From: a virus
Taxonomy: Duplodnaviria; Heunggongvirae; Uroviricota; Caudoviricetes
IMG/VR virus record: IMGVR_UViG_2541047715_000004
Length of the DNA stretch: 64,000 nt
Reading direction: 5' to 3' (one strand)
The notes below the pieces were generated by a model, which searched no databases, was not told the DNA's origin, and saw only the letters and a program-made list of their open reading frames with translations. The translations under genes and the position numbers were made by a program. This document shows, one piece after another, positions 18,526 to 20,474 of this stretch. Positions within the stretch are counted from its first letter, which is position 1, and each line of letters begins with the position of its first letter.

Positions 18526-19629
18526 ATGAAAAATAGCTTTGACAGAGCACGCGCTGCGGAGAACACCTCAAAAGAGGCGATAGAGTATCTCGAAAGAGCA
18601 TCTCAAATGCAGGCCGTTATGATCTCGCAGGTTAGCAATGACATGAGATTCTCGGACGCATTCATGTTATTCACTCGCTTATCTCTGCTGATAACCAGAC
18701 GTCGGCCAGAGATCGCTGTTCATTGTATTTTGATACATGTTTTGCCGCACATTGCCGATGTAAAAGTAAGTGACATTAATAGGTTCATGGTGAACCAACT
18801 GGTCAACCCACTAATACTGGATGGCAAAATTGTTATGGGCCGCCGCGTTTTCTCTCTGATGAAGCAGTTCCTTAGCTGGTGCGCCTTCCAGGGGATGATA
18901 GACGTGTCACCGTTAAACGATATGTCACTTAACAAAGTTGCCGGTGGCGCAAAGCCCACACCTCGCGAGCGGAAGCTGACCGACGCAGAGGTATGGGTGT
19001 TCTGGAATATATGGGACTACTTCAATGTGTGTGCTGGTACAAAATGGGCTGCCAGGCTATGTCTTGTATCCGCAAGACGACCTGACGAAGTACTGCGGGC
19101 TAAAAAAAGTGAGTTCAATCTTAAGCGTGGGGTTTGGAATCAAGGCAAGAGGAACAAATCTGCCCGTGAGCATTCTCTGCCTTTAAGCTCATTAATGCGC
19201 ACTTGTATTGAAGAGTTGTTCGAATATGGTAAAGACAGCCAGTGGCTCGTGCCTTCGAATAAAAAAATCGGGAAAGACCTTCCTATGTCTAAAGTGGCAA
19301 TAGCCCAGGCATTACGTCGTATTCTGGAACGACCAGAACTGATGGAGCTTGAGCCATTTACACCCCGAGACTTGCGCCGTACTGCGCGTAGTTACTTCCC
19401 AGCATTAGGCATAAGCCAGGAGGTATCACGCAAAATCATGAACCACAGTCTTGAGGGGATAGATCGAGTCTACGACCGGCACGATTATATGGACGAGATG
19501 CGAGACGCCTTAGAAAGTTTCTCGACGTACATCGCATCAATCGTAGAGCAACCGGATTTAGACGAAATTGACCACAAATTCAAGGGAGATCGTCTATCAA
19601 CAGAGCTTATTCGTGTAAATTTTTCATAG
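18526..19629 (+). CDS. int: tyrosine recombinase (integrase / resolvase family)
   Basis: C-terminal catalytic pattern RDLRRTARSY ... HSLEGIDRVYDRHDY (R, H-x-x-R, Y); 367 aa. Confidence 0.8.
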   Translation: MKNSFDRARAAENTSKEAIEYLERASQMQAVMISQVSNDMRFSDAFMLFTRLSLLITRRRPEIAVHCILIHVLPHIADVKVSDINRFMVNQLVNPLILDGKIVMGRRVFSLMKQFLSWCAFQGMIDVSPLNDMSLNKVAGGAKPTPRERKLTDAEVWVFWNIWDYFNVCAGTKWAARLCLVSARRPDEVLRAKKSEFNLKRGVWNQGKRNKSAREHSLPLSSLMRTCIEELFEYGKDSQWLVPSNKKIGKDLPMSKVAIAQALRRILERPELMELEPFTPRDLRRTARSYFPALGISQEVSRKIMNHSLEGIDRVYDRHDYMDEMRDALESFSTYIASIVEQPDLDEIDHKFKGDRLSTELIRVNFS

Positions 19630-20010
19630 AGACTTTATGGCCTCAACAACCTTTTGTGATGCGCCTTTCTCTTTACCGAATCGCTCGTTATATGCAGCAA
19701 GAACCTGTTTTTCGTCCTCGTTAAGAGGAGCAGTGCCTTCTTTGTATAAAAATGCTGCGAGTTCGGGTTGGCGTTCTTCCAGCACCATCATCATAAGACG
19801 ACTTGGCTCAATACCCAGTGCCAGCGCCAGCGGACGAACCTTATCGATAGGCAAAGGAATTTTGCCGCTTTTAATTAAAGAAAGGTTGTTGGCGTTTTTA
19901 TACCCAATTGTTTTGGCTATCTGGGCCTGGCTCATAGGTGAGGATTCAATCAACCCTGCGATAAAAGCAGCGTAGCGACTTTCTATAAATTCAATCTTGT
20001 TATCAGACAT
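19624..20010 (-). CDS. XRE-family HTH transcriptional regulator (repressor-like)
   Basis: HTH SQAQIAKTIGYKNANNLSLIKSGK; divergent from small ORF 20262..20474 across a 250-bp control region. Confidence 0.7.
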   Translation of the reverse strand: MSDNKIEFIESRYAAFIAGLIESSPMSQAQIAKTIGYKNANNLSLIKSGKIPLPIDKVRPLALALGIEPSRLMMMVLEERQPELAAFLYKEGTAPLNEDEKQVLAAYNERFGKEKGASQKVVEAIKSL

Positions 20011-20261
20011 GGTTACAACCTTTGCGCGTTCAATTCTCTCTGGTAAGTGCTTACCGATATTACATCAAAGGTTAGGGTTGTAAAGCTATTATCATTTTTT
20101 TCGATAGGCACTTAAAAGACCGGTTAAAGGCCATTGCACGGAGAAAAATTAGCCCAAAACAGGTAAGAAAATCAACTTGCATATGATATGAATGTATTCA
20201 GTATTGATACAAATTTTAGTAGTATTCCTTACCATAGTATAAGTTAGAATGGATTGATTGA

Positions 20262-20474
20262 ATGAACACCACTATTTCCAGCCTAATCGCTCTTGAGATC
20301 GGACACGTACAGAAATTAGCTGATGAGTGTGTAGCTGACATCCTCACCGATCTACCGAATGAGCAGATTCAGGTTGGTGTGAATGACACAACTGGATTTA
20401 TATTCGAACTTAACAACAAACGCTTCACGCTTCTCAATACCGGCTCCGGGTCTTTAGCCGTCAGAATCTGTTAA
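20262..20474 (+). CDS. hypothetical small protein divergent from repressor
   Basis: 70 aa ORF followed by hairpin CTGCGCGAA...TTCGCGCAG (20487..20519). Confidence 0.4.
   Translation: MNTTISSLIALEIGHVQKLADECVADILTDLPNEQIQVGVNDTTGFIFELNNKRFTLLNTGSGSLAVRIC

Follow-up and report, generated by a model that had tools for sequence, protein, structure and literature searches.

A candidate lysogeny-control module with dispersed operator-like palindromes in an SSU5-type phage-plasmid of Escherichia coli

We describe here a divergent gene pair in a 64,000-nt stretch of Caudoviricetes DNA (IMG/VR record IMGVR_UViG_2541047715_000004; the window in what follows) that very probably belongs to the lysogeny-control, or immunity, module of an SSU5-type E. 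coli phage-plasmid. The pair consists of a minus-strand gene, xre (19624..20010), for a 128-residue helix-turn-helix (HTH) protein of the XRE type, which is a candidate master repressor of lysogeny, and a plus-strand open reading frame (ORF) of 70 codons, ORF70 (20262..20474), a candidate lytic-side effector of the Cro-like or anti-repressor kind. The reading that we favour, by a modest margin over its alternatives taken together, is one of an autoregulated XRE master repressor with dispersed operators like those of phage P1, an SOS input through the promoter of the neighbouring recombinase gene, P(int), and ORF70 as the effector on the lytic side. What was observed is conservation, statistics, a pattern of expression and a natural deletion, and from these we infer all of the binding and causal steps.

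The 4.2 kb around the pair are 99.0% identical to Escherichia phage Cyrano (OV696614, the same element as pLF82); about 190 E. coli plasmids of ~105–115 kb match this region at 95–99.9% identity, and the region is matched by 526 plasmids in total. Cyrano is an SSU5-like phage-plasmid maintained at ~5.5 copies per cell, and ciprofloxacin raises it 39-fold (PMC9928086); SSU5-like phage-plasmids are known as carriers of resistance genes that are inducible by both mitomycin C and ciprofloxacin (PMC9600943, PMC9928086). The Cyrano annotation lists the recombinase gene int as CYRAN_44, the minus-strand ORF as CYRAN_45, which already carries the label 'putative repressor', and the 70-aa ORF as CYRAN_46, 'hypothetical'.

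The repressor candidate and its promoter

The original prediction was of a CI/Cro-like switch in which an XRE repressor gene diverges from a small ORF across an AT-rich region of ~250 bp, beside a recombinase gene, and may control the choice between lytic growth and plasmid maintenance. The physical layout is as proposed: both ORFs are confirmed, the spacer measures 251 bp (20011–20261) with a G+C content of 34% against 45.5% window-wide, and a tyrosine recombinase gene (int, 18526..19629, plus strand; Pfam Phage_integrase, E 2.9e-10) abuts xre, the two genes being convergent with a 6-nt overlap of their 3' ends and int being co-directional with ORF70. The order that is kept runs from a lox-like site and a P(int) with a LexA box through int and the opposing xre, across ~250 bp to ORF70, and on through a stem-loop to genes for a cobT-like vWA protein, an AAA_5 protein and (dnaE), with the XRE/ORF70 pair standing at the head of the replication operon. 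We find the same order in Klebsiella pJN2-26 (XRE 56–58% and ORF70 46% identical), in pCAV1015-111, in the E. coli variant L011, in Serratia and one metagenome contig, and in 108-kb plasmids of A. baumannii, where XRE is 40% identical and the small ORF at the same position 19%. In Photorhabdus the trio of XRE, small ORF and int is kept in different surroundings, and the divergent XRE/small-ORF arrangement is retained in every lineage examined. A plus-strand terminator-like hairpin inside xre (19850–19866) is not conserved, there is no conserved terminator between int and xre, and no known RNA families were found across 18300–20700.

By profile and by fold the minus-strand product is an XRE, or Cro/C1-type, HTH regulator. 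It matches Pfam HTH_19 at 19.7 bits (E 7.8e-4), below the 30.2-bit cut-off, and PHROG_8 'transcriptional regulator' at E 1.3e-11; its AlphaFold model is all-helical, with a predicted local distance difference test score (pLDDT) of 84–90 over residues 11–80, and the top Foldseek matches are all XRE-type HTH proteins with a probability of 1.00, though at E values of only ~1e-2. The structural neighbours include the restriction-modification C-proteins C.BclI and C.AhdI, HigA, SinR, and the 434 and P22 c2 repressors. A sequence search of the PDB gave only a marginal match (E 0.068) and NCBIfam gave nothing. Neither the Pfam scan nor the all-helical model contains a Peptidase_S24 domain, and because there is no such protease domain XRE is not a self-cleaving repressor of the lambda CI type.

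Homologues of XRE are encoded by 995 PLSDB plasmids, almost all of ~105–115 kb, from Escherichia, Klebsiella, Enterobacter, Salmonella, Yersinia (pMT1), Citrobacter, Cronobacter and Acinetobacter. A scan of genome contigs for further variants returned four loci only, all of them canonical; of two other variants, P0040 is absent from PLSDB and P0090 lies in an unrelated context without the motif described below. The segment GYKNxNNLSLIKSGKIPLP, which holds the recognition helix (residues 41–47 in the model), is nearly invariant, and the remainder of the protein is 55–70% identical. The gene is expressed in the lysogen at 10-fold over background (PMC9928086, Table 1). We consider it likely that XRE is the maintenance repressor of the plasmid state.

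A promoter for xre, P(xre), is predicted on the minus strand by consensus scan, with a -35 hexamer TTTACA (20084–20079), a 16-nt spacer and a -10 hexamer TAATAT (20062–20057), and both hexamers and their spacing are kept in E. coli, Klebsiella, Yersinia, Buttiauxella and Kluyvera. The palindrome GGTAAGTGCTTACC, which had been placed at 20052..20065, is indeed present but lies 10 nt to the left, at 20042–20055, and rather than being perfect it is composed of 6-bp arms around a non-palindromic TG (GGTAAG-TG-CTTACC; reverse complement GGTAAGCACTTACC). Of shuffles of the 251-bp region, 34% contain an inverted repeat whose arms measure 6 bp and whose spacer is at most 4 nt. The interrupted inverted repeat that had been reported at 20014..20093 is also real, with elements TTACAACCTTTG at 20013–20024, CAAAGGTT at 20066–20073 and GGTTGTAA at 20076–20083, but two or more inverted 8-bp pairs occur in 16% of shuffles of the spacer and the repeat is not kept in Klebsiella; its arms coincide with the -35 of P(xre) and with the ribosome-binding region of xre, and it is probably fortuitous. 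A role for it as a hairpin in the xre mRNA that sequesters the ribosome-binding site was considered and rejected, one arm being upstream of the predicted start and the arrangement again being absent from Klebsiella.

With such shuffle frequencies neither the palindrome nor the interrupted repeat is remarkable on its own. The palindrome gains its significance because it occupies the same promoter position in seven lineages and because it is a member of a family of dispersed motifs, which we refer to as class 1. When eight lineages are aligned, seven of them keep both hexamers of P(xre), the distance between these and the core GGTAAGyrCTTACy, and the other spacer sequence drifts. The local copy, O1 (20039..20058, core GGTAAGTGCTTACC), scores 13.3 bits against the position weight matrix of the family, and since the repeat starts 2 nt past the -10 it covers the +1 of P(xre). 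A second, degenerate class-1-like site lies over the -35 (20079–20095, minus strand); it is weak in the window, and its counterpart in most other lineages reads ATAGATAAGTCTTTACA and scores 11.7–19.8 bits. Further upstream of P(xre) is a conserved block, GTGCCTATCGA, at 20101–20111 on the minus strand.

The position of O1 bears directly on the form of switch that had been envisaged. In a compact switch like that of lambda, local operators would be shared by the divergent promoters, a Cro-like ORF70 would compete with the repressor for them, and neither protein would act genome-wide. The divergent AT-rich layout with an inverted repeat in the spacer is as expected for such a switch, and in Acinetobacter three copies of the motif lie between the two genes. 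However, O1 overlaps P(xre) only and is ~200 bp from ORF70, some 24–34 further copies of the motif lie elsewhere, the interrupted repeat is at chance level and unconserved, XRE has no S24 domain, and neither an HTH nor similarity to Cro was detected in ORF70. We therefore regard a compact switch as very unlikely. What stands of the original prediction is the divergent repressor and small ORF, and also the proposed role in the choice between lytic growth and plasmid maintenance, which is supported by conservation of the pair, expression of XRE in the lysogen and the deletion in SSU5 described below; what does not stand is the local form with shared operators.

Dispersed class-1 sites and their candidate binder

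The class-1 motif is a 20-bp pseudo-palindrome, ATAGGTAAGTACTTACCTAT, extended from the core GGTAAGNNCTTACC. The core occurs nine times in the window with two or fewer mismatches, where 1.26 occurrences are expected; at 12 bits or more there are 24 sites in the window, where shuffles average 1.07, and at 10 bits or more there are 34 in the full Cyrano genome against 0–8 in shuffles. Thirty of the 34 Cyrano sites are intergenic in a genome that is 13% intergenic and 87% coding (p=8e-23). The strongest copy, ATAGGTAAGTGCTTATCTAT, is at 45025..45044 (26.4 bits), and the other copies scoring at least 20 bits start at 2447, 7885, 11319, 14835, 17879, 30096, 34881, 36834, 40341, 49737, 54578 and 56796. 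Class-1 sites precede structural, lysis, tRNA, replication and nucleotide-metabolism genes, and this non-random placement of many copies ahead of lytic operons is of the kind seen for the dispersed operators of P1 C1. The motif is present in Klebsiella, pCAV, Yersinia, Buttiauxella, Kluyvera, Serratia and SSU5 as well, and no class-1 site was found in the P1 genome.

Several features of the sites suggest an association with promoters. The promoter-distal half of the motif is the better conserved. The final TAT of the motif together with the next three bases often forms a -10-like hexamer (TATnnT), whose sixth base is T in 12 of 20 sites. At two Cyrano sites (3527 and 57446) the motif fills the spacer of a consensus promoter, TTGAAA-17-TATGAT and TTGAAA-17-TATCAT respectively. 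We also considered that the motif might act as an RNA hairpin and rejected this: no covariation is seen at positions 4/17 and 5/16, and A-C mismatches are found as often as A-T pairs. The half-sites vary independently, and we therefore read the motif as a protein-binding site in the DNA, not as a structured RNA element. A long palindrome, CCTGCTTCTGTATATA...TATATACAGAAGCAGG, occurs in two copies in the window (~7750–7810 and ~55220–55290), each around a weak class-1-like site.

Which protein binds these sites is suggested by comparison among lineages. Motif-like sites adjoin XRE in every lineage, and of the candidates scanned in the conserved core only XRE is recognisable as an HTH regulator. 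In Acinetobacter the motif reads ATCAGTCAGTACTGACTGAT, a symmetric A-to-C change in both half-sites, with the three copies between XRE and its small partner, and the XRE helix there is FKRPNVLSM as compared with YKNANNLSL; helix variants with milder shifts in the half-sites are found in L011 (YKYQNQVSF) and Photorhabdus (YEKANNLSM). The helix is thus invariant where the motif is invariant and altered where the motif is altered. This covariation, the position of the sites and the status of XRE as the sole HTH regulator recognised fit XRE as the class-1 binder, and on balance we think it probable, from these sequence comparisons, that XRE acts at O1 to repress its own promoter and at the dispersed sites to keep the lytic genome silent.

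A number of observations weigh against this assignment. The link between XRE and the motif comes from position and from covariation over few lineages that have diverged together throughout, and L011 still has a near-canonical core at its P(xre). At most class-1 sites there is no -35, a feature more typical of activator-dependent promoters such as the Lpa-dependent late promoters of P1, and several of the sites are within operons at 1–20 nt from a start codon. Conservation of the motif across genera is unusually high for an immunity operator. In the ORF70 upstream region of the window there is no full class-1 site, the best score being 3.9 bits. In macrophages, genes adjacent to class-1 sites show no significant excess of induction over other genes (p=0.097), and induction shows no correlation with promoter score.

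A natural deletion provides evidence of a different kind. In SSU5 (JQ965645) tRNA-Asn leads directly to cobT and the module is absent. Comparison with an Enterobacter plasmid that is 99% identical in the left flank shows that 5.9 kb are missing (1630–7558 of L021, our extract of NZ_CP134672 1800–11500); the lost stretch, which runs to 24 nt past the ORF70 stop, contains phoH, grx, yafO, int, XRE and ORF70, and 36 nt of other sequence are found at the junction. SSU5, as isolated and used, is presumably a plaque-forming lytic phage. Because it lacks the module, XRE and ORF70 must be dispensable for lytic growth.

SSU5 also retains the class-1 motif, and this retention figures in the principal alternative, that class 1 is a lytic promoter element at about -20 that is read, in place of a -35, by a phage activator or a modified RNA polymerase. 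The copy at the P(xre) +1 would then let the lytic factor shut off the repressor, and XRE would act at other local operators. This alternative would account for the fixed register of the -10-like TATnnT at sites that have no conserved -35, for the presence of sites before both early and late genes, for the conservation of the motif across genera, and for the growth of SSU5 with the motif and without XRE. There is also a likeness to the P1 late promoters, in which an inverted repeat with the core AAGT..ACTT lies just upstream of a -10-like hexamer, mostly with no -35: the class-1 core AAGTACTT resembles the P1 '-22 box' AAGTKACTT, which lies 4 nt from the -10. The class-1 sites depart from this box in lacking its central base, in standing 3 nt instead of 4 from the -10 and in forming a longer palindrome (20 bp); they also precede early genes, and one of them is on the promoter of the repressor.

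Other observations do not favour an activator. No Lpa homologue was found by tblastn (best E=0.46), and no HTH protein besides XRE could be recognised in the conserved core. The retention of the motif in SSU5 is uninformative because the deletion is too recent, its 99% identical relatives still having XRE. The two sites that are complete consensus promoters have no need of an activator, and a protein bound there would occlude RNA polymerase; the sites at 1–12 nt from start codons would give leaderless mRNAs in which visible Shine-Dalgarno sequences are lost. Finally, the virulent Pseudomonas phage nickie (NC_042091 25001–75000), which is syntenic from the tail genes to nrdAB, has no such repeated palindrome, and int, XRE and ORF70 are all absent from it too. 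We regard the activator explanation as unlikely, although it is the strongest of those that compete with repression by XRE. The intergenic regions of nickie do contain GC-rich hairpins of variable sequence, with the -10-like hexamers TACAAT, TATACT and CATAAT in their loops; after these comes a TCAAACAG-like element, ahead of the ribosome-binding site.

A second dispersed palindrome, class 2 (AGAAAACAAnTTGTTT(T)), is found in the window at 5434, 8670, 36031, 47469, 57695 and 58424; the sequence AACAAnTTGTT occurs exactly 12 times in Cyrano where 0.16 occurrences are expected. Class-2 palindromes are always 15–45 nt upstream of a start codon (terS, parA, helicase, nrdB, and in other lineages cobT). 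A degenerate copy, GTAAATAATTTGTTTTC, lies at 20539..20555 on the plus strand, upstream of the cobT-like gene, and its counterpart is a perfect AAAACAAATTGTTTT in L011, Yersinia and Serratia and AAAACAATTTGTTT in Klebsiella. Class 2 could be the site of a second regulator, or could represent dispersed centromere-like sites as in N15.

The induction input and ORF70

Upstream of int is a lox-like site, AATGATTCCATAC-N7-GTATGGAATCATT (18395..18427), with 13-bp inverted arms around a 7-bp spacer. All enterobacterial lineages have it at this place before int, though its spacer varies, and in Photorhabdus the arms are changed yet still pair; it is probably the target of the adjacent tyrosine recombinase. 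Isolated lox-like arms, ATGATTCCATACATC, also occur at 14388 and 15400 on the plus strand and at 24446 on the minus strand, including inside dnaE. P(int), on the plus strand, is predicted with a -35 hexamer TTGATC (18452–18457), a 17-nt spacer and a -10 hexamer TAATAT (18475–18480), and a LexA box, TACTGTTTACTTATACAGT (18480–18498, plus strand), abuts the -10 and covers the start site. This box is the only exact CTGT-N8-ACAG in the window, and CTGT-N8-ACAG is at the same position of P(int) in eight of ten enterobacterial lineages. The 108-kb Cyrano genome has only two good LexA boxes, this one and one before CYRAN_98; the latter (TACTGTATGTGTATACAGTA, Cyrano 89275–89294, outside the window) precedes a UmuD-like S24 gene. 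The conserved box at P(int) is likely to be the induction input.

Expression was examined in strand-resolved RNA-seq of strain LF82 (S1 Table of PMC9928086), which covers five conditions and includes macrophages, an SOS-inducing environment (PMC9928086). CYRAN_98, with its own LexA box, rises by 5 log2 units in macrophages. From LB medium to 6 h in macrophages ORF70 (CYRAN_46) rises by 6.4 log2 units, the largest change in Cyrano, and follows CYRAN_98 with r=0.985; int (CYRAN_44) rises by 4.7 (r=0.955), XRE (CYRAN_45) by 3.3 (r=0.927) and the cobT-like gene (CYRAN_47) by 3.0 (r=0.922). The median shift of the plasmid is about +2.25 log2 units; XRE is slightly above it and the cobT-like gene is at the plasmid median. 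Expression of ORF70 and int is correlated at r=0.976. Simple transcriptional interference with xre by transcription from P(int) was considered and rejected, as xre mRNA rises along with int in macrophages, and this too counts against the circuit that we favour.

ORF70 is a small and isolated protein. Its sole profile match is PHROG_2627 (E 8.8e-41), whose function is unassigned; no similarity to Cro and no HTH were detected, and Pfam, NCBIfam and the PDB gave nothing. An exhaustive profile hidden Markov model search of 1.84 billion representative proteins returned nine clusters, all of ~70 residues, with no informative fusions. The AlphaFold model is unusable (pLDDT 43), a further point against our reading in that the fold of the proposed effector could not be modelled. 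Upstream of ORF70, a conserved block of ~45 bp, TGATATgaATGTATTCaGTATTGATACAA..TAGTAGTATT (20182..20228, plus strand), emerges from alignment of six lineages; it contains no good sigma-70 consensus, and it is probably a regulatory or promoter region for ORF70. Downstream, between ORF70 and the cobT-like gene, is a plus-strand stem-loop (20487..20519) with a 12-bp stem and no U-tract, five compensatory pairs across six lineages and a folding z-score of -3.4, and RNA falls ~30-fold across it in the macrophage RNA-seq. It is probably a terminator or a 3'-end element, and together with the RNA pattern it suggests that ORF70 is a separate, SOS-responsive transcription unit.

We propose that these elements may be connected as follows. 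Dimers of XRE would bind the class-1 motif, at its own promoter with negative autoregulation as the outcome, and at the dispersed copies with silencing of the structural, lysis and replication operons in the plasmid state. DNA damage would remove LexA from P(int), whereupon rightward transcription from P(int) would cross xre in the antisense direction, or a separate ORF70 promoter would be derepressed, or both; ORF70 might accordingly be made by read-through from P(int) or from its own weak conserved upstream region (20182–20228). ORF70 would then antagonise XRE, whether by competing at P(xre) in the manner of Cro or by acting as a small anti-repressor, leading to lytic growth. That ORF70 counteracts XRE in one of these ways is a tentative proposal, which falls a little short of being probable. 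The most specific version of the scheme, in which one protease-less XRE, ~30 palindromic operators, antisense read-through from a LexA-controlled P(int) that delivers ORF70 as a new anti-repressor or Cro substitute, and homo-immunity all go together, is unlikely to be correct in every part.

It is also conceivable that XRE and ORF70 form an accessory stress cassette that is unrelated to lysis and lysogeny, for instance a regulator of the HTH antitoxin type together with a small effector, or a moron for superinfection exclusion, and that the class-1 motif is the target of a host factor or of some other protein. XRE has HigA antitoxins and restriction-modification C-proteins among its structural neighbours, the module is in a cargo-rich, deletion-prone stretch that is beside toxin-antitoxin genes in relatives, and both genes are transcribed under non-lytic conditions. 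However, the genes are divergent and not co-transcribed, the pair is a core feature of ~1000 phage-plasmids across genera and always heads the replication operon, no other repressor candidate was recognised in the element, and the Acinetobacter motif changes together with the XRE helix. An accessory cassette is in our view the least probable of the explanations considered.

Relation to known switches

The closest logic to that of the proposed circuit appears to be that of the phage-plasmid P1, followed by those of phiC31 and L5. Like P1, the element is a plasmid prophage with one operator-like sequence in many genome-wide copies before lytic operons (P1 C1 has >17 dispersed operators); its repressor gene is beside a tyrosine recombinase and a lox-type site, as P1 ImmC is next to lox-cre; and there is a LexA box nearby and a partner of ~70 residues, as in the P1 arrangement of a LexA-controlled P2coi and the 69-aa C1 inactivator Coi. 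The parts themselves are different. There is no homologue of C1, Coi or Lpa here (C1 by tblastn against the window and Cyrano, best E 2.1), the P1 operators are asymmetric 17-mers for a monomer whereas the sites described here are 20-bp pseudo-palindromes suited to an HTH dimer, and coi is co-transcribed with c1 whereas ORF70 is divergent from xre. The L5 gp71 stoperators and the conserved inverted repeats of phiC31 are present in tens of copies in short intergenic gaps, some of them inside operons; the phiC31 sites are palindromic and those of L5 are asymmetric and orientation-dependent, and both belong to unrelated repressors and hosts. The resemblance to them lies in the many copies of one site, here a putative operator, in intergenic gaps.

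With lambda, 434 and P22 the module shares a repressor with an XRE-type HTH fold, whose gene diverges from the small first gene of an early rightward operon, and an operator on the repressor's own promoter that suggests autoregulation. It departs from them in that there is no S24 autoprotease, the promoters are not closely apposed with shared operators, the partner shows no similarity to Cro and the operators are dispersed; the SOS signal probably enters through LexA at a neighbouring promoter and not by self-cleavage that RecA stimulates. A protease-less repressor, a nearby LexA-controlled promoter and a small induced protein as candidate antagonist are reminiscent of phages 186 and N15 (Tum, AntC), and the N15 anti-repressor is regulated by LexA (cited in PMC11652158). 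Here, however, there is no LexA box directly before ORF70, the link would need read-through from P(int) across antisense xre, and there is no sequence similarity. In the literature that we searched we found no description of an SSU5-like lysis-lysogeny circuit, operator family, LexA-int link or ORF70 behaviour.

The window and Cyrano differ in their cargo. Four tRNA genes (Asn, Tyr, Thr, Ser) lie at 15603–16153 in the window as compared with three annotated in Cyrano; CYRAN_43, a moron over-expressed 723-fold, is absent from the window; and the window has additional ORFs at 16431–17012 and 17020–17832 and a 1038-aa ORF on the minus strand (60615–63731). Many of the lytic genes share a stereotyped translation-initiation context, AAAGGAAAAACACATG (for example at the window starts 10116, 24186, 34926, 36533 and 47505).

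SSU5-like phage-plasmids are common in clinical Enterobacteriaceae and Acinetobacter, and ~1000 plasmids of the SSU5 type have been sequenced from E. coli, Klebsiella, Salmonella, Enterobacter, Yersinia pestis (pMT1) and Acinetobacter. Among the elements of E. coli, Salmonella, Klebsiella, Yersinia and Serratia both the operators and the recognition helix hardly vary, and the enterobacterial members would therefore be cross-immune if XRE is the binder. Loss of the module offers an explanation for the lytic behaviour of SSU5. The analysis yields a defined module, a 20-bp operator candidate, a map of the regulon and an entry point for LexA, which make the circuit directly testable. ORF70, a conserved ORFan that in macrophages is induced more than any other gene of the element, is a candidate for a new switch protein in these phage-plasmids.

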